Shown here: positions 31,488 through 59,886 of the stretch, piece after piece | Position numbering within the stretch: position 1 is the stretch's first letter | Layout of the letters: every line of letters starts with the position of its first letter | DNA from: a plasmid | Length of the DNA stretch: 64,000 bases | Strand: one strand, 5' to 3' | Sequence record: CP019900.1 | The notes under the pieces: generated by a model | The model's input: only the letters and a program-made list of their open reading frames with translations | Database searches by the model: none | What the model was told of the DNA's origin: nothing | Translations under genes and position numbers: made by a program

Positions 31488-33491
31488 ATGATTATGAGTG
31501 AAAATGATACAATCCCGAAGAAGTCTACAAGCCAGATTAACAAAGCGGTATTTTTTACATCTGCTTTGCTGATTTTCCTTCTTGTTGCCTTTGCCGCCGT
31601 ATTCCCGGATGTCGCCGACAAAAATTTTAAACTACTTCAGCAACAAATCTTCACGAATGCCAGCTGGTTCTACATCCTTGCTGTGGCCCTGATTTTACTG
31701 AGTGTCACGTTCCTGGGACTCTCACGCTACGGTGATATCAAGCTGGGCCCGGACCATGCGCAGCCTGATTTCAGCTACCACTCCTGGTTTGCGATGCTTT
31801 TTTCGGCAGGGATGGGGATCGGACTGATGTTCTTTGGCGTTGCCGAACCTGTAATGCATTATCTTTCGCCTCCCGTCGGCACCCCGGAGACCGTTGCGGC
31901 AGCGAAGGAAGCAATGCGTCTGACCTTCTTCCACTGGGGACTGCACGCATGGGCAATTTATGCCATTGTGGCGCTGATTCTGGCGTTCTTCAGTTACCGT
32001 CACGGTCTGCCGTTAACCCTGCGCTCCGCACTCTATCCCATTATCGGCGATCGCATATACGGGCCTGTAGGTCATGCGGTTGATATTTTCGCTGTTATCG
32101 GCACGGTCTTTGGCGTTGCGACCTCGCTGGGTTATGGTGTTTTGCAGGTGAATGCCGGTTTGAACCATCTTTTCGGGGTGCCCATCAATGAAACGGTGCA
32201 GGTTATTCTGATCGTGGTCATCACGGGGTTAGCGACGATTTCAGTGGTGTCCGGCCTGGATAAGGGAATACGTATCCTGTCTGAGCTCAATCTGGGTCTG
32301 GCGTTGTTGCTCCTGGCGCTGGTCCTGTGTCTGGGACCAACCGTGCTTCTGCTGAAGTCATTTGTGGAAAATACGGGCGGTTATCTTTCGGAACTGGTGA
32401 GTAAAACGTTCAACCTTTACGCGTATGAGCCTAAGTCGAGCAACTGGCTGGGGGGCTGGACATTACTGTACTGGGGATGGTGGCTTTCATGGTCGCCGTT
32501 TGTGGGGATGTTCATCGCACGGGTCTCCCGCGGGCGAACCATTCGCGAGTTTGTCACCGGCGTGCTGTTTGTTCCCGCGGGTTTTACGCTCATGTGGATG
32601 ACGGTGTTTGGTAACAGCGCGATCTATCTCATTATGAACCAGGGGGCCACAGACCTCGCCAGTACCGTTCAGCAGGATGTGGCGCTGGCCCTGTTTAATT
32701 TCCTGGAGCATTTCCCGTTCTCTTCCGTGCTGTCATTCATCGCAATGGCGATGGTCATCGTCTTCTTTGTCACGTCTGCTGATTCAGGGGCAATGGTTGT
32801 TGATTCTCTGGCATCAGGTGGAGTGGCAAACACACCCGTCTGGCAGCGAATATTTTGGGCCTCGCTCATGGGCATTGTCGCAATTGCGCTTCTCCTTGCC
32901 GGAGGGCTAAGTGCGCTGCAAACAGTGACAATAGCGAGTGCATTGCCATTCTCAGTGATCTTACTGATATCTATATACGGACTTTTAAAAGCTTTGCGCC
33001 GGGATTTGACCAAGCGTGAAAGCCTGAGCATGGCGACAATTGCTCCTACGGCTGCACGTAACCCAATTCCCTGGCAGAGAAGGTTACGCAATATCGCGTA
33101 TCTGCCGAAGCGATCTCTTGTGAAACGTTTTATGGACGACGTCATCCACCCCGCCATGACGCTGGTTCAGGAAGAGCTGAACAAGCAGGGGACGATAAGC
33201 CACATCAGTGACGCAGTCGACGATCGTATTCGTCTTGAAGTCGATTTGGGTAACGAGCTGAATTTTATATATGAAGTGAGGCTTCGCGGGTATAGCTCAC
33301 CGACCTTCGCGCTCGCCGCGATGGATAATAATGAGCAGCAGACTGAACAACATAGATATTATCGCGCTGAGGTATATCTCAAAGAAGGCGGTCAAAATTA
33401 TGATGTGATGGGCTGGAACCAGGAGCAGCTGATTAATGACATACTGGACCAGTACGAAAAACATCTGCACTTCCTGCACCTGGTTCGTTAA
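31488..33491 (+). CDS. BCCT-family transporter (betaine/carnitine/choline type) with long C-terminal cytoplasmic extension
   Basis: 12-TM core with BCCT signature region (WTLLYWGWWLSWSPFVGMFIARVSRGRTIREF). 667 aa, like BetT-type members. Confidence 0.9.
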   Translation: MIMSENDTIPKKSTSQINKAVFFTSALLIFLLVAFAAVFPDVADKNFKLLQQQIFTNASWFYILAVALILLSVTFLGLSRYGDIKLGPDHAQPDFSYHSWFAMLFSAGMGIGLMFFGVAEPVMHYLSPPVGTPETVAAAKEAMRLTFFHWGLHAWAIYAIVALILAFFSYRHGLPLTLRSALYPIIGDRIYGPVGHAVDIFAVIGTVFGVATSLGYGVLQVNAGLNHLFGVPINETVQVILIVVITGLATISVVSGLDKGIRILSELNLGLALLLLALVLCLGPTVLLLKSFVENTGGYLSELVSKTFNLYAYEPKSSNWLGGWTLLYWGWWLSWSPFVGMFIARVSRGRTIREFVTGVLFVPAGFTLMWMTVFGNSAIYLIMNQGATDLASTVQQDVALALFNFLEHFPFSSVLSFIAMAMVIVFFVTSADSGAMVVDSLASGGVANTPVWQRIFWASLMGIVAIALLLAGGLSALQTVTIASALPFSVILLISIYGLLKALRRDLTKRESLSMATIAPTAARNPIPWQRRLRNIAYLPKRSLVKRFMDDVIHPAMTLVQEELNKQGTISHISDAVDDRIRLEVDLGNELNFIYEVRLRGYSSPTFALAAMDNNEQQTEQHRYYRAEVYLKEGGQNYDVMGWNQEQLINDILDQYEKHLHFLHLVR

Positions 33492-48290: not shown

Positions 48291-48911
48291 ATGCCCCGCC
48301 GTTCGATCCTCTCCGCCGCCGAGCGCGAAAGCCTGCTGGCGTTGCCGGACACCAAGGATGAGTTGATCCGTCACTACACGTTCAGCGAAAGCGACCTCTC
48401 CATCATCCGGCAGCGGCGCGGCCCGGCCAATCGGCTGGGCTTCGCGGTGCAGCTCTGCTACCTGCGCTTTCCCGGCGTCATCCTTGGCGCTGATGAGCCA
48501 CCGTTCCCGCCATTGCTGAGACTGGTCGCCAACCAGCTCAAGGTCGGCATCGAAAGCTGGGACGAGTACGGGCAGCGTGAGCAGACCCGACGCGAGCACC
48601 TGGTCGAGCTGCAAACGGTGTTCGGCTTCCAGCCGTTCACGATTGGCCACTACCGGCAGGCTGTCCAGTTGCTGACCGAGCTGGCCATGCAAACCGACAA
48701 GGGCATCGTGCTGGCCAGAGCCTTGATCGAGCACCTGCGGCGGCAGTCGGTCATTGTGCCCGCCCTCAACGCCGTCGAGCGGGCGAGCGCCGAAGCGATT
48801 ACCCGCGCCAACCGGCGTCTCTACGACGCCTTGGCTGAGCCGCTGACGGACGTGCATCGCCGTCGCCTCGACGATCTGCTCAAGCGCCGCGACAACGGCA
48901 AGACGACGTGG
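48291..48911 (+). pseudogene. tnpA: Tn21-subfamily transposase, N-terminal ~207 codons, truncated by IS26
   Basis: MPRRSILSAAERESLLALPDTKDELIRHYTFSESDLSIIRQRRGPANRLGFAVQLCYLRFPGVILG...LLKRRDNGKTTW matches the recalled Tn21 TnpA N-terminus. The similarity stops exactly at the IS26 repeat (48912). Confidence 0.85.
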
Positions 48912-49732
48912 CGGCACTGTTGCAAAGTTAGCGATGAGGCAGCCTTTTGTCTTATTCAAAGGCCTTACATTTCAAAAACTCTGCTTACCAGGCGCATTTC
49001 GCCCAGGGGATCACCATAATAAAATGCTGAGGCCTGGCCTTTGCGTAGTGCACGCATCACCTCAATACCTTTGATGGTGGCGTAAGCCGTCTTCATGGAT
49101 TTAAATCCCAGCGTGGCGTCGATTATCCGTTTCAGTTTGCCATGATCGCATTCAATCACGTTGTTCCGGTACTTAATCTGTCGGTGTTCAACGTCAGACG
49201 GGCACCGGCCTTCGCGTTTGAGCAGAGCAAGCGCGCGACCATAGGCGGGCGCTTTATCCGTGTTGATGAATCGCGGGATCTGCCACTTCTTCACGTTGTT
49301 GAGGATTTTACCCAGAAACCGGTATGCAGCTTTGCTGTTACGACGGGAGGAGAGATAAAAATCGACAGTGCGGCCCCGGCTGTCGACGGCCCGGTACAGA
49401 TACGCCCAGCGGCCATTGACCTTCACGTAGGTTTCATCCATGTGCCACGGGCAAAGATCGGAAGGGTTACGCCAGTACCAGCGCAGCCGTTTTTCCATTT
49501 CAGGCGCATAACGCTGAACCCAGCGGTAAATCGTGGAGTGATCGACATTCACTCCGCGTTCAGCCAGCATCTCCTGCAGCTCACGGTAACTGATGCCGTA
49601 TTTGCAGTACCAGCGTACGGCCCACAGAATGATGTCACGCTGAAAATGCCGGCCTTTGAATGGGTTCATGTGCAGCTCCATCAGCAAAAGGGGATGATAA
49701 GTTTATCACCACCGACTATTTGCAACAGTGCC
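48912..49732 (-). mobile_element. IS26 (IS6 family) variant copy, 821 bp; no 8-bp target duplication
   Basis: 14-bp inverted repeats GGCACTGTTGCAAA at both ends. One extra C/G in the 3' non-coding part relative to the other two copies (AAAGGGCC versus AAAGGCC). Flanks GACGTGGC / CCTATTTA. Confidence 0.95.
48965..49687 (-). CDS. tnp26: IS26 transposase, variant with Asp instead of Gly in KRIIGATLGF (KRIIDATLGF)
   Basis: Otherwise identical to the two other 240-aa Tnp26 copies in the window. Confidence 0.95.
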   Translation of the reverse strand: MLMELHMNPFKGRHFQRDIILWAVRWYCKYGISYRELQEMLAERGVNVDHSTIYRWVQRYAPEMEKRLRWYWRNPSDLCPWHMDETYVKVNGRWAYLYRAVDSRGRTVDFYLSSRRNSKAAYRFLGKILNNVKKWQIPRFINTDKAPAYGRALALLKREGRCPSDVEHRQIKYRNNVIECDHGKLKRIIDATLGFKSMKTAYATIKGIEVMRALRKGQASAFYYGDPLGEMRLVSRVFEM

Positions 49733-50130
49733 CTATTTATCGCTACACCACAAAATCATGAATGACCGCAGCATGGCGGTTTTATTTTCTTATGCCGTCA
49801 GGGCATGGAAGGCGACCACGCCGGAGTTAAACGGGCACCGGCCGCAAATCGCCGGAAACCGCAATGCTGAACGTATCGCCCGACCCAGCCCCCTCCCTGC
49901 AAAGCCCTAATCCCGCTCACCGCCACACAGCTGCCGTACGTCCCCCACGGGGGTGCGCAGTGGGCGCCGCGCGCCTGCGCGCGGGAACGGCGGCCCGCCT
50001 TCGGGTCGCGGCGCCGTACTGCGCGTTAGCGGCCGCACGCGGCCGGTTACGGGGGACACTACGCCATACGACAAGCGACCCGCTGAGCTGCACAATCCAC
50101 GGATAACACAAGCTACATACATGTCGATAT

Positions 50131-50636
50131 GGGAATCCGCCCATCTTGCCGGGCGCCGCTGTCGTGTGGGAATCGGCCCACCTTGCCGGGCGCCGCTGCC
50201 GTGTGGAAATCCGCCCATCTTGCCGGGCGCCGCTGCCGTGTGGGAATCCGCCCATCTTGCCGGGCGCCGCTGCCGTGTGGGAATCGGCCCACCTTGCCGG
50301 GCGCCGCTGCCGTGTGGGAATCGGCCCACCTTGCCGGGCGCCGGTGCTGTGTGGAAATCCGCCCATCTTGCCGGGCGCCGCTGCCGTGTGGGAATCGGCC
50401 CACCTTGCCGGGCGCCGGTGCTGTGTGGAAATCCGCCCACCTTGCCGGGCGCTGCTGTCGTGTGGGAATCGGCCCACCTTGCCGCGCGCCGGTGCTGTGT
50501 GGGAATCGGCCCTCCTTGCCGGGCGCCGCTGCCGTGTGGGAATAGGCCCACCTTGCCGGGCGCCGCTGCCGTGTGGAAATCCGCCCACCTTGCCGGGCGC
50601 TGCTGTCGTGTGGGAATCGGCCCACCTTGCCGGGTG
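50131..50636 (+). repeat. tandem array 1: ~13.5 copies of a 37-bp GC-rich unit GGGAATC(C/G)GCCCA(C/T)CTTGCCGGGCGCCG(C/G)TGC(C/T)GTGT
   Basis: Head-to-tail repeats, directly visible. 37 is not a multiple of 3 and all six frames are open, so the predicted ORFs across it are artefacts. Confidence 0.95.
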
Positions 50637-50946
50637 CGTAATTGCATCGGACTTGACTACCCATTTGCATTTTACTTGGTGACCGTTTGCAGATTACTTG
50701 ACCATCACCAACTAAATCTGTCCCATTAGATTTAGTTGGCGTAAGGCCTTACATCTTAACGGCTGCTGTGTGCCAGAAGCGGACGTTATAGGAAGCAATC
50801 TTTTGCCGGATTCGGTAAAACCCCAATTTTTCCGAACCGCACTCGTCCCCGCGCCGTTGTGGCGCTGATAACTACATGTAGTGGTTTTCTCAGATGCTGC
50901 CGATACTACATACAGCGGGTGCGGGGGAACCCGCAGGCCAACACTA

Positions 50947-52099
50947 AATAGCTGCGCGGAATAGTAGATCACTGAAAGGGAACTCAGCCCGGATTGCGCG
51001 ATCTGATCATTCGCCAAACCAACCAAAACCACCAACCGGACTGAGCGATGCCGATCATAGCACCAATACCCCGTGGCGAACGACGCCTGATGCAGAAAGC
51101 TATTCATAAAACGCGCGATAAAAATCATGCCCGCAGACTCACGGCCATGCTGATGCTTCATCGGGGTGAACGGGTCAGCGATGTTGCCAGAACTCTCTGT
51201 TGTGCCCGTTCATCCGTTGGTCGCTGGATTAACTGGTTTACGCACTCAGGTATTGAAGGCCTGAAATCCTTACCCGCAGGGCGCTCCCGACGCTGGCCTT
51301 TTGAACATATCTGCACCCTGTTACGTGAGCTGATAAAGCATTCTCCCGGCGATTTTGGTTATCAACGTTCACGCTGGAGCACCGAATTACTGGCAATAAA
51401 AATCAATGAGATAACCGGTTGCCAGTTACATGCAGGAACCGTTCGCCGCTGGTTGCCATCTGCGGGGCTTGTATGGCGCAGGGCCGCGCCAACTCTGCGC
51501 ATCCGTGACCCACATAAAGATGAAAAGATGGCGGTAATCCACAAAGCGCTGGATGAATGCAACGCAGAGCATCCGGTATTTTATGAAGATGAAGTGGATA
51601 TTCACCTTAATCCTAAAATCGGTGCGGACTGGCAGTTGCGCGGACAGCAGAAACGGGTAGTGACGCCGGGGCAGAACGAAAAATACTATCTGGCCGGCGC
51701 ACTGCACAGTGGCACGGGTAAAGTCAGCTACGTGGGCGGCAACAGCAAAAGTTCAGCGCTGTTTATCGCTCTGCTGAAGCACCTGAAAGCCACTTACCGG
51801 CGGGCGAAAACAATCACGCTGATCGTTGATAACTACATTATCCATAAAAGCCGCGAAACACAGCGCTGGTTGAAAGCAAATCCCAAGTTCAGGGTAATTT
51901 ACCAGCCGGTTTACTCGCCGTGGGTGAATCATGTGGAACGGCTATGGCAGGCACTTCATGACACGATAACCCGTAATCATCAGTGCCGCTCAATGTGGCA
52001 GTTACTGAAAAAGGTCCGCCATTTTATGGAAACCGCCAGCCCATTCCCCGGAGGAAAACATGGTCAGGCAAAAGTGTAGCGGTATTAGGCGCAGCTATT
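50947..52099 (+). mobile_element. IS630 (1153 bp) inserted at a TA in cynX
   Basis: Terminal repeats TAAATAGCTGCGC... at both ends and a TA dinucleotide on each side. The transposase is near-identical to recalled IS630 Tnp. Confidence 0.85.
51048..52079 (+). CDS. IS630-family transposase
   Basis: MPIIAPIPRGERRLMQKAIHKTRDKNHARRLTAMLMLHRGERVSDVARTLCCARSSVGRWINWF..., 343 aa. Confidence 0.9.
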   Translation: MPIIAPIPRGERRLMQKAIHKTRDKNHARRLTAMLMLHRGERVSDVARTLCCARSSVGRWINWFTHSGIEGLKSLPAGRSRRWPFEHICTLLRELIKHSPGDFGYQRSRWSTELLAIKINEITGCQLHAGTVRRWLPSAGLVWRRAAPTLRIRDPHKDEKMAVIHKALDECNAEHPVFYEDEVDIHLNPKIGADWQLRGQQKRVVTPGQNEKYYLAGALHSGTGKVSYVGGNSKSSALFIALLKHLKATYRRAKTITLIVDNYIIHKSRETQRWLKANPKFRVIYQPVYSPWVNHVERLWQALHDTITRNHQCRSMWQLLKKVRHFMETASPFPGGKHGQAKV

Positions 52100-52406
52100 T
52101 AGTCAGCAGCACCACGCTGTGAGGCGCCAGCTCACGCATTAGCGCCCCAATAATGATCATCAACAGACCGACCGCCACGCTATCACGCTCGCGAATATGA
52201 CGAGTGATCCAGCCTCCCGCCAGCGCCAGTCCGCCCATCGCGACCATCGGTAATGCGGTAAGAAGAGAAGCCACAGTAAAACTCATGCCGCTGGCCGCAC
52301 GTAATTGCGGGAGTAAAGGCCCGATTGACGTGAGTAGCGGACGCATATTCAGGCCAATCAGCACCAACACAAGGAGCATCAGACCCGTACGAGGAGATTG
52401 ATTCAT
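52095..52406 (-). pseudogene. cynX: cyanate MFS transporter, first ~100 codons only; truncated by IS630
   Basis: MNQSPRTGLMLLVLVLIGLNMRPLLTSIGPLLPQLRAASGMSF... matches the CynX N-terminus. It ends at the IS630 boundary. Confidence 0.85.
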
Positions 52407-52454
52407 ATTGTTCTTTGAGCCCGGCGCGGATAACGCGCCAGGCTTTACTCGGGT

Positions 52455-52925
52455 TTAGAAAGGTTTTGTCGGCAGATATTTGCCATCAAGCGTAATCACC
52501 GCGCGTTCACCGCCTTCCGGGTCAGCCACTTTTTTGACATCCAGCTTGAAGTTAATGGCGCTGATAATGCCGTCGCCAAATTTCTCATGCACCAGCACCT
52601 TCAGCGTAGAGCCATACACCTGCAGGATTTCATAGAAGCGATAAATGGTCGGGTCAGTGGGTACGCGATCGTCAATACTGCCGCGCAGTGGGATCATTTG
52701 CAGAAGCAGCACCGCATCTTCATCCAGTGAGAGCTTTTCACCAACCAGACGCGCCGCATCAGCCGGCAGTGCATGCTGCCCCAGCAAGGCCGCGGTAACA
52801 AAAGCTTCAGATAAGCCCGTACCATCGGTGAGTTGCGCAAAGGTCAGATCTTTTTTCGCTTTGATAAGCAGAATCTGGTCAGCCAAAGAGAGGCGAATAT
52901 CGCGGTTAATTTGTGCGTGGATCAT
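52455..52925 (-). CDS. cynS: cyanase (cyanate hydratase)
   Basis: 156 aa, near-collinear with E. coli CynS (…[40 protein letters not shown]). Confidence 0.95.
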
Positions 52926-52954
52926 AATGGAACCTCCTGTATAGAGAGAAAAAA

Positions 52955-53614
52955 TTAAGCTGCGGTGAGGCTGCGAAGCGGCATCGCGCAGGTATTTGGA
53001 TTTTCGGCAAGCGAGACAAACTGCCCGCTGGCACCGTTGTAGGCGGCAATATCGCCACGTTCGATGTCGTAAACCCAGCCGTGTAATGCCATCCGCCCCT
53101 CTTCCAGCGCCAGGCGTACTGACGGGTGGGTCTGAATATTGGCCAGCTGTGCGATAACGTTTTCACGCACCATTGATGCGGTTTTCGCCTGCAATGAAAT
53201 ATGCGTGCGTGATTCATTCACCACGCGGGCTGAATCGGCATAGCGCAGCCAGTGGCTGACGGCGGGCATACTGTCCAGGCAATGGCATCCGGCGATGGCC
53301 GTCATGGCGCCACAGTCAGAGTGACCACATATAACAATGTCATTTACTTTCAAAACCGACACGGCGTACTCCACCGATGCGGTAACGCCTCCCGGTTCCG
53401 GGCCATAAGAAGGAACAATGTTGCCCGCATTACGGATGACAAACAGATCGCCAGGCTCACGCTGCGTCACCAGCTCCGGCACCAGGCGGCTATCTGAACA
53501 CGATATAAAAAGCGCGCGTGGGTTTTGCTGGTTTGCCAGCGATCTGAAAAGCTCGGCGCGTTCGGGAAAGACGCTGCGCTGAAATTTCAAAAAGCCATCA
53601 ATAATCTCTTTCAC
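52955..53614 (-). CDS. cynT: beta-class carbonic anhydrase
   Basis: [10 protein letters not shown]...[11 protein letters not shown] motifs, 219 aa, upstream of cynS. Confidence 0.93.
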
Positions 53615-53723
53615 GATTGTTCCTCTGTCTCACTATGGAATGGACACAGGCTACTCGCTACGTTCCATAAGATAAAAGACTCATTTATAATCAAGTCTAT
53701 TGGTAAAACTTATGGGAAAGATG

Positions 53724-54611
53724 ATGCTGTTACGACATATTCACTACTTTCTGGCAGTCGCTGAGCATCGAGGCTTTACCCGTGCCGCCACGGCGCTTCA
53801 CGTTTCGCAGCCCGCGCTTTCTCAGCAAATCAGACAGCTTGAAGAGTCACTTGGCGCGCAACTGTTCGATCGCAGTGGTCGCCATATTCAGCTCACCGAT
53901 GCTGGCGAAGCCTGGTTGGGTTACGCGAAAAATGCGCTGAGATCGCTGGAAGAGGGAAAGCGGGCAATTCATGATGTCGAGGATTTGAGCCGTGGCTCAC
54001 TGCGTGTCGCCGTTACCCCCACGTTTACCTCGTGGCTTATCGGGCCGCTAATGGCGAGGTTTTATGCGCGCTATCCCAATATCACCCTTGCGTTACAGGA
54101 GATGTCGCAGGAAAAGATGGAAGAGCTGCTGCTCAACGATGAACTGGACATCGGCATCGCATTTGATGATGTTCATTCGGCAGACATCGACGTACTGCCG
54201 CTACTGAAGGAATCCCTTGCGTTGATGGTGTCTGAAAGCCATCCTCTGGCGCAACAGGAGTGCGTAGCCTTGTCACATCTTAATAATGAACGACTCATTT
54301 TACTGAGTGAGGAATTTGCGACGCGCGAACAAATTGATCGCTATTGCCGCCAAAGAGATCTGCATCCGCAGATAGTAATAGAAGCAAACTCTATCAATGC
54401 CATTCTGGAACTGGTGCGTCGTACAACGCTCGCCACCCTGCTTCCATCGCCAATCGCCGCGCAAAATGAGGGATTAAAAGCCGTTTCACTGACGCCGCAG
54501 TTGCTGGAACGAACCGCCGCGCTGATGCTACGCAAAGGCGCGTGGAGAACGGCCGCCGTGAAGGCATTTACGGCAATGGCGCAGGAAGTGACGAAAACGT
54601 ACACCCGGTAA
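53724..54611 (+). CDS. cynR: LysR-type regulator of the cyn operon
   Basis: [44 protein letters not shown]... near-collinear with E. coli CynR. Divergent from cynT. Alternative upstream start at 53700. Confidence 0.93.
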
Positions 54612-54670
54612 CATTGAATTTCGCACGCCAGCAGGCGATAGTGCTTTTTTGACTGAGACAGAAGACGAGT

Positions 54671-55288
54671 ATGACATCAACCGCACTCTCATCGACACTC
54701 AAAGGCGGCGCGCTGATCCTGTTGCTTGCCCTGATTTACACCGGCCTCTTTACCGCTGACCGCACGACCTGGCTCATGGAGGTCACCCCGGTCATTATCA
54801 TTGTGCCGCTGCTATTGTCCACGCATCGTCGCTACCCGCTGACGCCCCTCCTTTACACGCTTATCTTTTTCCACGCGCTTATTCTGATCGGCGGCGGCAT
54901 GTACACCTACGCCAAAGTGCCCATCGGCTTCGACGTGCAGGAGATGTTTAACCTGAGCCGCAATCCTTACGACAAACTGGGCCACTTTTTCCAGGGGCTG
55001 GTTCCGGCACTGGCGGCGCGAGAAATTTTACTGCGCAGCGGCTACGTGCGCGGGCGTAAAATGGTCGGTTTTCTGGTCTGCTGTATCGCTTTGGCCATCA
55101 GTGCAGCCTATGAATTGATCGAGTGGTGGGCGGCGCTGGCGATGGGCCAGGGCGCAGATGATTTCCTGGGGACTCAGGGCGATCCGTGGGATACGCAGTC
55201 GGACATGTTCTGCGCCTTGCTCGGGGCATTAACCACGGTATTGCTGCTTGGTCGTTACCATCAGCGCCAGCTAATGCGCTTACTGTAA
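54671..55288 (+). CDS. inner-membrane protein, YjdF/DUF2238-like
   Basis: 205 aa, 5-6 hydrophobic helices. Weak recall of the YjdF family. Confidence 0.45.
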   Translation: MTSTALSSTLKGGALILLLALIYTGLFTADRTTWLMEVTPVIIIVPLLLSTHRRYPLTPLLYTLIFFHALILIGGGMYTYAKVPIGFDVQEMFNLSRNPYDKLGHFFQGLVPALAAREILLRSGYVRGRKMVGFLVCCIALAISAAYELIEWWAALAMGQGADDFLGTQGDPWDTQSDMFCALLGALTTVLLLGRYHQRQLMRLL

Positions 55289-55425
55289 TTTCTCGAACCC
55301 GCCTGATTGGCGGGTTCTGCGTTATACAGCACACCGTTTATCAGGCAACAACCTTACAAATCAGGATGGTTCTTCTCAGGTCGCTCCAGCGCCAGATATC
55401 ATTTTGCAATTTATCCAGCTTATAG

Positions 55426-56620
<1,195 letters not shown>

Positions 56621-57504
56621 CTAAGCATAAAACTCCATCCCCCTGCGTTGCGTGTAAGAGTCTTGTCAGTTGATAGTACACAAGTCACTGGAGACTGACA
56701 TCTTTTACAATATGTTCAGGTAGGGTGATAACTAATGCACCTATCAGCCTAGGGAGTATCTATGTTCGGTAAAACGCCAAGTCTGCAAATTCTCACCTTA
56801 AAACTCTGCATTATTCGGTAAAACCCTAATTTTGCCGAAAAAAAGCCGCCCCGAAGGACGGCTATAAACCTTTCAGTTTTGCCCGTTCAGGCTTTCACCT
56901 TCACAGACTCCGGCACCATTAAAGGAACCAGTTGATCAACTGCAATACAGCCGCAATTAAGGTCAGAATAGCGATAATCAGCTCAATCATTCCCCGCACC
57001 TCCATCTCTGTGGCGCGTAGGTTACTAGGCAATCCCCTTTCCTCTAATCCGCCCATCCGGTTATGCCATTCACTTAACCAAAAGAAGAATTTCACCACGC
57101 TGCCGCCCAGGCTTCCGGGTGCGAAACCGGAAGAGGGCTATACCGTTGCCGTGTGCTTGCCCACGGTTCGGGTCCTGTTTAGTACCAAATTCGATTTTGA
57201 AGAGTCTGAACTGGCTCATCACACAGGCGGCTAAACGGGCTTTACCTCTTTGATCTGAGAGCATTATAAACGGTACAGTGGCTTATTTAATACAGGTTTG
57301 ATCATATGCCGCGTTAGACGTATAATTAACATGCCAAAAGAAGAATTTCACCTCGCTGTATGCCGGATGCCCGCGAAGCATCACAGGCTACAGAGCAGAT
57401 AACCCGCCTTGAGCGGGTTTTCTGCTTTATGAGGCCGCCGCCAAGCGGTTTTTTTACGCCTCGTCAGGGCATTCGGTAAAACACCTATTCTCCTGAATCC
57501 CACT

Positions 57505-58540
57505 GGCCCCGCGCCGCTGCCGTGTGGAAATCCGCCCACCTTGCCGGGCGCCGCTGCCGTGTGGGAATCGGCCCACCTTGCCGGGCGCCGGTGCCGTGTG
57601 GGAATCGGCCCACCTTGCCGCGCGCCGGTGCCGTGTGGGAATCCGCCCACCTTGCCGGGCGAGGCTGCCGCGTGGGAATCGGCCCACCTTGCCGGGCGAG
57701 GCTGCCGCGTGGGAATCGGCCCACCTTGCCGGGCGAGGCTGCCGCGTGGGAATCGGCCCACCTTGCCGGGCGCGGCTGCCGTGTGGGAATCGGCCCACCT
57801 TGCCGCGCGCCGGTGCCGTGTGGAAATCGGCCCACCTTGCCGCGCGCCGGTGCCGTGTGGGAATCCGCCCACCTTGCCGCGCGCCGGTGCCGTGTGGGAA
57901 TCCGCCCACCTTGCCGGGCGAGGCTGCCGCGTGGGAATCGGCCCACCTTGCCGGGCGAGGCTGCCGTGTGGGAATCCGCCCACCTTGCCGGGCGAGGCTG
58001 CCGTGTGGGAATCCGCCCACCTTGCCGGGCGAGGCTGCCGCGTGAGAATCCGCCCACCTTGCCGGGCGCCGCTGCCGTGTGGAAATCCGCCCATCTTGCC
58101 GGGCGCCGCTGCCGCGTGAGAATCCGCCCACCTTGCCGGGCGCCGCTGCCGCGTGGGAATCGGCCCACCTTGCCGGGCGCCGCTGCCGCGTGAGAATCGG
58201 CCCACCTTGCCGGGCGCCGCTGCCGCGTGGGAATCGGCCCACCTTGCCGGGCGCCGCTGCCGCGTGAGAATCCGCCCACCTTGCCGGGCGCCGCTGCCGT
58301 GTGGAAATCCGCCCATCTTGCCGGGCGCCGCTGCCGCGTGAGAATCCGCCCACCTTGCCGGGCGCCGCTGCCGTGTGGAAATCCGCCCATCTTGCCGGGC
58401 GCCGCTGCCGTGTGGAAATCCGCCCATCTTGCCGGGCGCCGCTGTAGTGTGGAAATCCGCCCATCTTGCCGGGCGCCGCTGTCGTGTGGGAATCCGCCCA
58501 TCTTGCCGGGCGCCGGTGCTGTGTGGAAATTCGCCCATCT
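57505..58540 (+). repeat. tandem array 2: ~28 copies of the same 37-bp unit, same orientation as array 1, with blocks of sub-variants (GGGCGAGGCTGCCGCGTG, GCGCGCCGGTGCCGTGTG, GGGCGCCGCTGCCGCGTGAGAATC...)
   Basis: Directly visible head-to-tail repeats. Variant units are clustered in runs of 2-4, suggesting local expansion. Confidence 0.95.
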
Positions 58541-58588
58541 TCATGACAAAAATTTGTCAAATGACAGGCTCATGTGTGCTGATTTATG

Positions 58589-59066
58589 TCAGACGGGATT
58601 TTGCTTATCAATTATTGAGAACAGAAATTTTCCTGAATCATCAATACTATACTTAGCAAGTAAAGGTGTTTTCTCATTTATCTGCTTGAGTGCAGGATCA
58701 AGGAAAGATCGTTTCAACTCTGCCAAGTTCTTCTGTTGGGATTCCGGCAAAAGGAAACGGTCATTTAACCAAGCATGAGTAGTAACCCATAAGCCTGAAG
58801 ATTTGAATTGAGCAAGACTTTCATAAAGGCGGATCGTCCGGGGATTTCGAAGACTGCCACAATCGCGGAGCGAGTAGGTGGTGAACTGGTTCGTCAGGCC
58901 GTAAATGTACCGCAGGAGTTTATGGTTAAATTCGATTTCCCAGATACCACGAGCTGATCGGCTGCCAGCCTCTGTTAGCCAGGGGCGCGCGACGCAGTCA
59001 AAACGCCCCTCTTTCGGGTAAAAGATTACCGCAGAACGGCTTAACTCAAACACGCCTTCTTTAACA
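58589..59066 (-). pseudogene. Rep_3-family (RepE/RepB-like) replication initiator, C-terminal ~150 codons; the 5' end is removed by IS26
   Basis: …NHKLLRYIYGLTNQFTTYSLRDCGSLRNPRTIRLYESLAQFKSSGLWVTTHAWLNDRFLLPESQQKNLAELKRSFLDPALKQINEKTPLL aligns with the F RepE C-terminal half (…[82 protein letters not shown]). The ORF's apparent start lies inside the IS26 repeat. Confidence 0.7.
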
Positions 59067-59886
59067 GGCACTGTTGCAAATAGTCGGTGGTGATAAACTT
59101 ATCATCCCCTTTTGCTGATGGAGCTGCACATGAACCCATTCAAAGGCCGGCATTTTCAGCGTGACATCATTCTGTGGGCCGTACGCTGGTACTGCAAATA
59201 CGGCATCAGTTACCGTGAGCTGCAGGAGATGCTGGCTGAACGCGGAGTGAATGTCGATCACTCCACGATTTACCGCTGGGTTCAGCGTTATGCGCCTGAA
59301 ATGGAAAAACGGCTGCGCTGGTACTGGCGTAACCCTTCCGATCTTTGCCCGTGGCACATGGATGAAACCTACGTGAAGGTCAATGGCCGCTGGGCGTATC
59401 TGTACCGGGCCGTCGACAGCCGGGGCCGCACTGTCGATTTTTATCTCTCCTCCCGTCGTAACAGCAAAGCTGCATACCGGTTTCTGGGTAAAATCCTCAA
59501 CAACGTGAAGAAGTGGCAGATCCCGCGATTCATCAACACGGATAAAGCGCCCGCCTATGGTCGCGCACTTGCTCTGCTCAAACGCGAAGGCCGGTGCCCG
59601 TCTGACGTTGAACACCGACAGATTAAGTACCGGAACAACGTGATTGAATGCGATCATGGCAAACTGAAACGGATAATCGGCGCCACGCTGGGATTTAAAT
59701 CCATGAAGACGGCTTACGCCACCATCAAAGGTATTGAGGTGATGCGTGCACTACGCAAAGGCCAGGCCTCAGCATTTTATTATGGTGATCCCCTGGGCGA
59801 AATGCGCCTGGTAAGCAGAGTTTTTGAAATGTAAGGCCTTTGAATAAGACAAAACGCTGCCTCATCGCTAACTTTGCAACAGTGCC
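59067..59886 (+). mobile_element. IS26 copy 2 (820 bp)
   Basis: Repeats GGCACTGTTGCAAA at both ends. Flanks CTTTAACA / GTCGATAT, so no duplication. Confidence 0.97.
59112..59834 (+). CDS. tnp26: IS26 transposase
   Basis: 240 aa, canonical KRIIGATLGF. Confidence 0.97.
   Translation: MLMELHMNPFKGRHFQRDIILWAVRWYCKYGISYRELQEMLAERGVNVDHSTIYRWVQRYAPEMEKRLRWYWRNPSDLCPWHMDETYVKVNGRWAYLYRAVDSRGRTVDFYLSSRRNSKAAYRFLGKILNNVKKWQIPRFINTDKAPAYGRALALLKREGRCPSDVEHRQIKYRNNVIECDHGKLKRIIGATLGFKSMKTAYATIKGIEVMRALRKGQASAFYYGDPLGEMRLVSRVFEM

Follow-up and report, generated by a model that had tools for sequence, protein, structure and literature searches.

Plasmids F and P1 provide the classical arrangement in which origin iterons (F incB, P1 incC) are accompanied by auxiliary control iterons (F incC, P1 incA). 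The general titration and handcuffing mechanism of such auxiliary iterons has been reviewed (PMC12361487). The closest described counterparts of the locus considered here are the 37-bp repeats of IncN plasmids, which plasmid papers name IncN "iteron regions I and II" and describe as RepA-binding, copy-control sites; secondary sources citing Papp & Iyer 1995 and Krishnan & Iyer 1990 ascribe to them RepA binding, a lowered copy number and IncN incompatibility. We analyzed a 64,000-nucleotide stretch of one plasmid (sequence record CP019900.1, the whole stretch being referred to hereafter as the window) that holds two arrays of a 37-bp repeat, and conclude with high confidence that both in identity and in normal role they are iteron regions, with 37-bp units, of a theta replicon of the IncN1 (R46/pCU1) type. 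Since several open-access plasmid papers describe this element, it is already known, and the finding, including the orphan, IS26-truncated form encountered here, is an ordinary one.

Two 37-bp arrays beside a truncated IncN1 repA

The arrays, the initiator gene and the insertion sequences that delimit them are arranged as follows.

48914-49733, minus strand: left copy of IS26, 820 bp, transposase at 48965-49687; terminal repeats GGCACTGTTGCAAA / TTTGCAACAGTGCC read directly
49734-50130, plus strand: resP end and GC-rich spacer (last 29 bp of resP, then ~368 bp with short inverted repeats)
50131-50634, plus strand: array 1, the resP-proximal IncN1 iteron array; 13 full 37-bp units and a 23-bp partial, with 14 RepA-core copies
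57507-58541, plus strand: array 2, the repA-proximal IncN1 iteron array; 27 full 37-bp units and partial ends, with 28 RepA-core copies
58589-59061, minus strand: delta-repA (IncN1), approximately residues 82-239 of the 239-aa Rep_3 initiator, comprising part of WH1 and the whole of WH2
59062-59881, plus strand: right copy of IS26, inverted relative to the left copy and truncating repA

Tandem Repeats Finder placed array 1 at 50130-50634 (period 37, 13.6 copies, 89% matches) and array 2 at 57511-58541 (period 37, 27.9 copies, 93% matches), with no third array of this kind in the 64-kb window. A 17-bp degenerate core, GRRAATYSGCCCWYCTT, has 42 matches in the window, all on the plus strand and all within the arrays (14 + 28), against 0.03 expected in shuffled sequence. 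Parsed in register, the full units begin at 50131 in array 1 and at 57526 in array 2, the latter being preceded by a degenerate lead-in (57489-57525) and closed by a terminal partial unit of 17 bp. An initial annotation of this DNA had reported two 37-bp arrays on the same strand and had proposed that the units be counted and their variants clustered; repeat finding, core matches and unit parsing all agree with the former, and the count came to 13 units plus a partial and 27 units plus partials, with 27 distinct variants among the 40 full units of both arrays. Its further suggestion, that sub-variants cluster locally, is borne out in array 2, in which neighboring units are more alike than when shuffled (mean Hamming distance 2.46 versus 3.82, p<0.0002), but not for array 1 (3.75 versus 3.36, not significant).

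None of the 40 full units deviates at core positions 4-6, 9-12 and 15-17. The arrays reach 72-74% GC in a window of 52.8%, and the GC content is partitioned within the unit, the core having 65% and the 20-bp spacer 85%. The units follow one another head-to-tail with no unique spacers between them, in keeping with the earlier statement that this is not CRISPR. Array 2 ends at 58541, such that 47 bp separate it from the end (58589, stop codon included) of the minus-strand Rep_3 open reading frame (ORF), close to the ~50 bp from the truncated Rep gene given previously; at the other side, the resP 3' end lies 368 bp to the left of array 1.

These elements occupy the segment 49734-59061 between two inverted IS26 copies, which form an inverted repeat of ~820 nt that is 100% complementary; comparison of their 8-bp flanks in both orientations gave no match (no target-site duplication seen). 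The break that the left IS26 makes in the IncN1 backbone lies 29 bp short of the resP end. A megablast search of PLSDB led to IncN-typed plasmids, from which we took pKPC_FCF/3SP (IncN, MOBF, MPF_T; L001 in the coordinates below) as the main reference. Window positions 49733-50946 align to L001 622-1983, and positions 56621-59066 align ungapped over 2446 bp to L001 3506-5951 at 97.1% identity, the whole colinear segment being 96-98% identical (blastn). The reference backbone runs resP, GC-rich spacer, distal array, a 2.7-kb module (holding a SEC-C-domain gene and a small ORF), repA-proximal array and repA; its arrays contain 17.6 and 27.9 copies of the 37-bp unit in the same places and orientation as those of the window. 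A Tandem Repeats Finder period of 37 and one consensus are common to the window, pKPC_FCF/3SP and R46. Units of the IncN1 sequence and of 37 bp are thus present, in arrays that lie between repA and resP and are colinear with the reference.

The spacer between resP and array 1 is itself part of this backbone (49734-50130 is 96% identical to L001 622-1018), and the interval from resP to the iterons has been mapped as "CUP6" in one paper. Its 368-bp portion (49763-50130) is very GC-rich, carries inverted repeats such as CGTTAGCGGCCGC/GCGGCCGGTTACG, and is also conserved in R46.

The minus-strand ORF at 58589-59071 matches Pfam Rep3_N (profile positions 62-140 of 141 only) and Rep3_C, and the truncated gene is 98% identical to residues 78-239 of IncN1 RepA by tblastn, a search that returned no other Rep_3 homologue in the window. 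IncN1 RepA, whose full-length form is WP_013263795.1, in turn matches F RepE (PDB 1REP, the RepE–iteron complex) at E 2e-29, and the term "RepE-like" used in the initial annotation was therefore a fair one. Within 49700-59100 there is no Rfam match at E<=1, such that no known RNA family explains either the arrays or the module between them.

The 37-bp unit is also related to the origin. Intact pKPC_FCF/3SP and R46 carry five 22-bp repeats, AAGGTGGGCCAATTCCCATAAC, directly upstream of repA; read on the opposite strand, these contain GGGAATTGGCCCACCTT, which is the core of the 37-bp unit. In both plasmids the 22-bp repeats are followed by AT-rich DNA and TGTGGATAT, which we take to be DnaA-box-like by comparison with the consensus. 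No core in the inverted (minus-strand) orientation occurs anywhere in the 64-kb window. Homology to the reference stops at L001 5951, where IS26 begins (59062), and the window is without the repA promoter, the initial ~81 codons of the gene, the five 22-bp iterons and the AT-rich/DnaA-box-like region. Neither the full-length repA with promoter nor the origin of a functional IncN1 replicon is thus found. Because the origin and the first ~81 repA codons are missing, the replicon is dead and its arrays are orphans.

A mechanism consistent with this layout would run as follows. Each unit would present a RepA site of ~17-18 bp, (T)GGGAATnGGCCCACCTT, followed by a 19-20-bp spacer of 85% GC, and the stretch of the unit protected by RepA is predicted to be TGGGAATnGGCCCACCTT. 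In intact IncN1 plasmids the same core, at 22-bp spacing and in opposite orientation, forms the origin iterons upstream of repA, and the long downstream arrays would serve as auxiliary control iterons that bind RepA without firing; these would lower copy number and confer IncN incompatibility via titration of RepA and/or handcuffing of the origin. In the window, IS26 has removed the repA 5' end, the promoter and the whole origin to leave 42 orphan RepA sites on an IncN1 backbone remnant. These are inactive in cis, and any effect would be in trans, on the RepA of an IncN1 plasmid in the same cell. Slippage or unequal exchange alters unit number and order fast. We infer that the arrays can exert incompatibility in trans in their present context, and that the 3.5-turn spacing and GC-rich spacers keep them from acting as origins. 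Among the functions put forward at the outset, the first listed, iteron or handcuffing sites for the adjacent Rep_3 initiator, is the right one, in agreement with the IncN1 region, the repA identity and the literature, and the likeness of the position of array 2 to that of incC/incA is upheld by its location downstream of IncN1 repA.

Copy number, distribution and competing accounts

The initial annotation predicted a variable-number tandem repeat (VNTR), and the counts from other plasmids bear this out. In the seven comparison plasmids with both arrays, core counts range from 14 to 18 in the distal array and from 4 to 30 in the proximal one. The 28 cores of array 2 recur in pKPC_FCF/3SP and pWLK-IncN, with 30 in pEh25_4 and 13-20 elsewhere. 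In array 1, every unit is the same as in pEh25_4; apart from this one array, unit number and order in the window differ from those of every plasmid compared, and order varies even among arrays of equal length. Published counts include 30-31 repeats per plasmid tabulated in one study (PMC6052338), 7 versus 3 copies in sister plasmids in another (PMC5027574), and an R46 iteron repeated 30.6 times without a rep gene in a third (PMC4048246).

Spread through chromosomes without any replicon association had been named as an observation that would undercut an iteron function; the distribution that we find is plasmid-bound. The repeats occur in 571 of 5,426 complete E. coli genomes, where 15,858 of the 16,248 matching places are on plasmids, and one chromosomal example (H70) adjoins a rep gene. 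Species-representative genomes yielded 14 stretches in 7 assemblies, all Enterobacteriaceae, many of them at contig ends, from which it follows that short-read assemblies break at the arrays. The arrays are accordingly of practical use and nuisance alike, being a known VNTR marker and a known breakpoint of short-read plasmid assemblies.

Orphan arrays are common. PLSDB holds 2,047 records with arrays, and only 970 with the repA 5' half and origin, such that at least 1,077 of the 2,047 array-bearing plasmids are without the latter. The same disparity is seen in Klebsiella (902 records with arrays versus 272 with the repA 5' half and origin) and in E. coli (637 versus 315, leaving 322 of 637 without). 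Truncation of repA has several different endpoints among these plasmids, the arrays being retained. The biological interest of orphan arrays, found on roughly half of array-bearing plasmids, lies in a possible remaining incompatibility toward IncN1 resistance plasmids.

Several points weigh against the arrays acting as RepA-bound control iterons as we have described. RepA binding and copy control rest on secondary statements; the arrays in the window are without a cognate initiator, such that whatever function they now have would depend on a co-resident IncN1 plasmid; and published naming is inconsistent over which array is region "I" or "II". A crude bound on co-residence, in addition, shows no depletion: at most 55 orphan records (an upper limit from summary counts) fall in origin-carrying E. 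coli genomes, against ~18 expected if the two are assumed to be independent.

These observations also frame a stronger proposal, that orphan arrays are kept on IncF/IncR plasmids as an incompatibility weapon against IncN1. Some ~40 high-affinity RepA sites without an origin would titrate or handcuff the initiator of an incoming IncN1 plasmid, thereby displacing a competitor. The frequency of origin-less arrays and the varied repA cut points are compatible with such selection, but the crude bound on co-residence lends it no support, and we regard it as unlikely.

A neutral alternative is that the arrays are a GC-rich minisatellite, generated by slippage or unequal crossing-over and promoting recombination, that sits beside rep by chance. 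Copy number and unit order do vary between near-identical plasmids, the likeness of neighboring units in array 2 is of the kind expected, and the single array of R46, against two elsewhere, fits recombination between arrays. Chance, however, leaves unexplained why the unit should contain the exact core of the origin iterons, why the core positions listed above should be fixed in 40 full units, and why a 57%-identical relative from IncR should keep the same design with a core of its own; we consider this account very improbable.

Tandem protein-binding arrays of low-copy plasmids can also be centromeres (F sopC consists of 12 x 43 bp), and a centromere-like partition site akin to the F sopC and P1 parS arrays, bound by a Par/Stb adaptor, would suit the proximity of the arrays to resP, a maintenance gene. 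The core, however, is identical to that of the origin iterons upstream of repA, and is assigned to RepA in the literature; the IncN1 replication region contains no gene of the parA/parB type, R46 has its stbABC stability operon ~10 kb away from the arrays, and the IncR sister replicon carries its own parAB besides its 36-bp array. The region accordingly offers no par genes and a core that belongs to a Rep origin, leaving a partition role barely credible. Both the centromere and the recombination-prone minisatellite had been listed in the initial annotation, and both are unnecessary.

That the arrays, or their lengths, are assembly artefacts is equally hard to credit. Species-representative matches do lie at contig ends, and one paper suspects a sequencing error in one repeat unit; set against this, both arrays recur in numerous complete plasmid records that are independent of one another and differ in country and species, 28 cores are found in three separate records, and array 1 matches pEh25_4 in every unit. 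Finally, a repetitive protein encoded by ORFs of 138-387 aa that pass through the arrays in several frames has a negligible claim. ORFs at 57381-58544 (387 aa) and 49907-50647 (246 aa) are listed mechanically, and "hypothetical protein" has been annotated over the array by a few depositors. As 37 is not a multiple of 3, however, any frame passes through the three phases in turn within 111 bp, and the unit lacks stop codons; reading frames stay open on the two strands simultaneously, and in most records PGAP annotates nothing over the arrays. The long ORFs are therefore no genes.

The interval between the arrays

Returning to the IncN1 iteron regions of the window, the interval that separates them is composed of the following features.

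50635-50947, plus strand: left remnant of the inter-array module, 98% identical to L001 1672-1983; a palindromic motif, then a degenerate iteron-like stretch
50948-56620: accessory block, which replaced 1.5 kb of the inter-array module
~50948-52100: ISEc33, ends read directly
52095-52406, minus strand: cynX remnant, from the ORF and the annotation of an identical block
52455-52925, minus strand: cynS, likewise from the ORF and the identical block
52955-53614, minus strand: cynT (carbonic anhydrase), on the same basis
53700-54611, plus strand: cynR, on the same basis
54671-55288, plus strand: DUF2238 membrane-protein gene (Pfam DUF2238)
55426-56620: IS5, ends read directly
56621-57506, plus strand: right remnant of the inter-array module, with three TTCGGTAAAAC copies and a candidate type I toxin-antitoxin locus

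The accessory block took the place of L001 1984-3505, which is essentially the whole SEC-C gene, and left 312 bp and 890 bp of module beside the arrays. We observe that a cyanate-utilisation cluster (cynS, cynT, cynR and the cynX remnant) together with DUF2238 thereby lies between ISEc33 and IS5 on the plasmid. The initial annotation had proposed that the 6.8-kb interval was an insertion into, or a replacement within, one originally longer array. This does not hold, as non-repeat backbone (the 312 and 890 bp) flanks the block on its two sides; we rejected a block that split one longer array, since the arrays of IncN1 are already separated by the 2.7-kb module and it was 1.5 kb from the middle of that module that the block replaced.

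An identical block and an identical left IS26 junction are found in pEh25_4 (IncN) and p30860-tetA (IncR), the former having an intact repA and a proximal array of 30 cores, the latter a proximal array of 4 cores. The shared block and junction imply that the structure of the window arose from a pEh25_4-like IncN plasmid through a single additional IS26 event, into repA.

In R46, only one array is present between repA and resP (R46 32480-32790), with 7 core copies, and the SEC-C/toxin module is missing; for this reason R46 is not representative of most sequenced IncN1 backbones. The 2.7-kb module may once have split a single array: R46 has one array without the module, and the two partial units facing the module make exactly one complete unit between them (23 + 14 bp), suggesting an insertion. 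A paralogue of ~50 bp of the array 2 lead-in, including unit-like sequence, nevertheless lies 177 bp inside the module (50811-50860), which speaks against a simple split, and the R46 form may equally be the deletion product of recombination between two direct arrays.

The module carries a short motif, ATTCGGTAAAAC, whose recurrence at four sites in the initial annotation we recovered, with exact copies of TTCGGTAAAAC at 50811, 56765, 56814 and 57472, all on the plus strand (50811-50836, 56765-56775, 56814-56839 and 57472-57482). With one mismatch allowed, TTCGGTAAAAC has 6 matches against 0.79 expected. The copies at 50811 and 56814 are good palindromes of the form TTCGGTAAAA-N6-TTTTnCCGAA, the former (50811-50836) reading TTCGGTAAAACCCCAATTTTTCCGAA. 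The motif occupies homologous positions in the window and in pKPC_FCF/3SP, is confined to the inter-array module, and is absent from R46; its copy at 56814 coincides in part with a promoter-like site on the minus strand, upstream of the SEC-C gene that has been deleted. A probable role is that of an operator in the module for a regulator, separate from the iteron system. The earlier view of the motif as a degenerate array start survives in part only: the copy at 57472 alone abuts a degenerate unit, and the motif is in the main a partly palindromic element of the module.

The right remnant of the module also contains a candidate type I toxin-antitoxin locus (56844-57430), with elements on both strands. 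The putative toxin is a minus-strand small ORF (57098-56919, annotated "hypothetical") whose end, MIELIIAILTLIAAVLQLINWFL, is preceded by a GGAGG Shine-Dalgarno, with a terminator-like site at 56863-56844; the candidate toxic peptide has 23 aa, and the match to Pfam TisB_toxin is weak (E 0.0017, 19 bits against a cut-off of 25). The candidate small RNA (sRNA) would start divergently from a plus-strand promoter, TTGATC-17-TATAAT (57298-57326), and end at a terminator (57401-57419) to give a predicted RNA of ~95 nt with its start near 57333. Its first 25 nt repeat 57078-57102 (24/25 identical), from which it follows that the 5' end of the candidate sRNA is complementary to the leader of the toxin mRNA. 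The energy of the whole-length RNA duplex (-86 versus -64 +/- 5 kcal/mol for shuffles) is uninformative, because duplexfold pairs everything, and the 24/25-nt repeat is the evidence to be used. Homologues are all unnamed, and no Rfam match covers the locus.

Homologues of this small-toxin locus (L026 2100-2760 and L027 2100-2720, corresponding to window 56840-57460) sit on a 152.6-kb Pectobacterium contig and on a 4.7-Mb contig, in the latter with flhB- and cheZ-like genes on its two sides. Leader and peptide are conserved in each, and the Pectobacterium substitutions cluster in the peptide-coding part. Both are also without the 255 bp that separate the two 25-bp repeats of the IncN form, such that the sRNA-like sequence directly overlaps the leader in each.

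The molecule that hosts this segment appears, from its gene content, to be an IncF-type conjugative plasmid, although no replication gene belonging to it was found within the window. Positions 1-24000 match IncF-type tra (traI, traD, traX, finO) and ast arginine-catabolism regions of Klebsiella plasmids. The ORF cut by the left IS26 (48291-48913) reads like the N-terminus of a Tn3-family transposase. For annotation, the 9.3-kb IS26-bracketed block is to be regarded as an inactivated IncN1 replication region, and the window should not be typed IncN.

Comparison with IncN1, IncR, F and P1 replicons

Set beside the IncN1 iteron regions of pCU1, R46/pKM101 and pKPC_FCF/3SP, the window has the same 37-bp unit at 96-98% identity, in the same order (resP, array, module, array, repA), the same orientation and at the same distance to the repA stop. 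It departs from an intact IncN1 replicon in that repA is without its first ~81 codons and the origin is gone, and in that the SEC-C-domain gene between the arrays has been replaced by ISEc33-cyn-DUF2238-IS5. Published orphan IncN remnants resemble it in having an IS26-truncated or absent repA and 5-31 of the 37-bp repeats on the accessory regions of IncF, IncR or IncHI2 plasmids, with 24-31 repeats beside an IS26-truncated repA reported for IncF and IncR mosaics; unlike these, the window keeps both arrays, with the cyn insertion between them.

The IncR replicon (L023, NZ_CP097425.1, 2700-4200), the nearest relative, provides a further counterpart, its RepB being 57% identical to IncN1 RepA. 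Here, 22-bp repeats are found upstream of rep and an array of 36 bp x 10.5 downstream. The upstream repeat and the core of the IncR array, TTGACCTGTTTCCCA, are reverse complements of each other, and a GC-rich spacer follows the core, in likeness to the IncN1 unit. Conservation of this layout points to a designed control element rather than a random minisatellite.

F incC, P1 incA and the IncR array share with the IncN1 arrays the provision of extra initiator sites downstream of rep, inverted relative to the origin iterons, and such sites control copy number and incompatibility via titration or handcuffing. F incC has five units and P1 incA nine. In comparison with incC and incA, the IncN1 arrays are longer (up to ~30 units) and strictly periodic at 37 bp (3.5 helical turns); they are, moreover, split in two, with a spacer of 85% GC between cores and a highly variable number of units.

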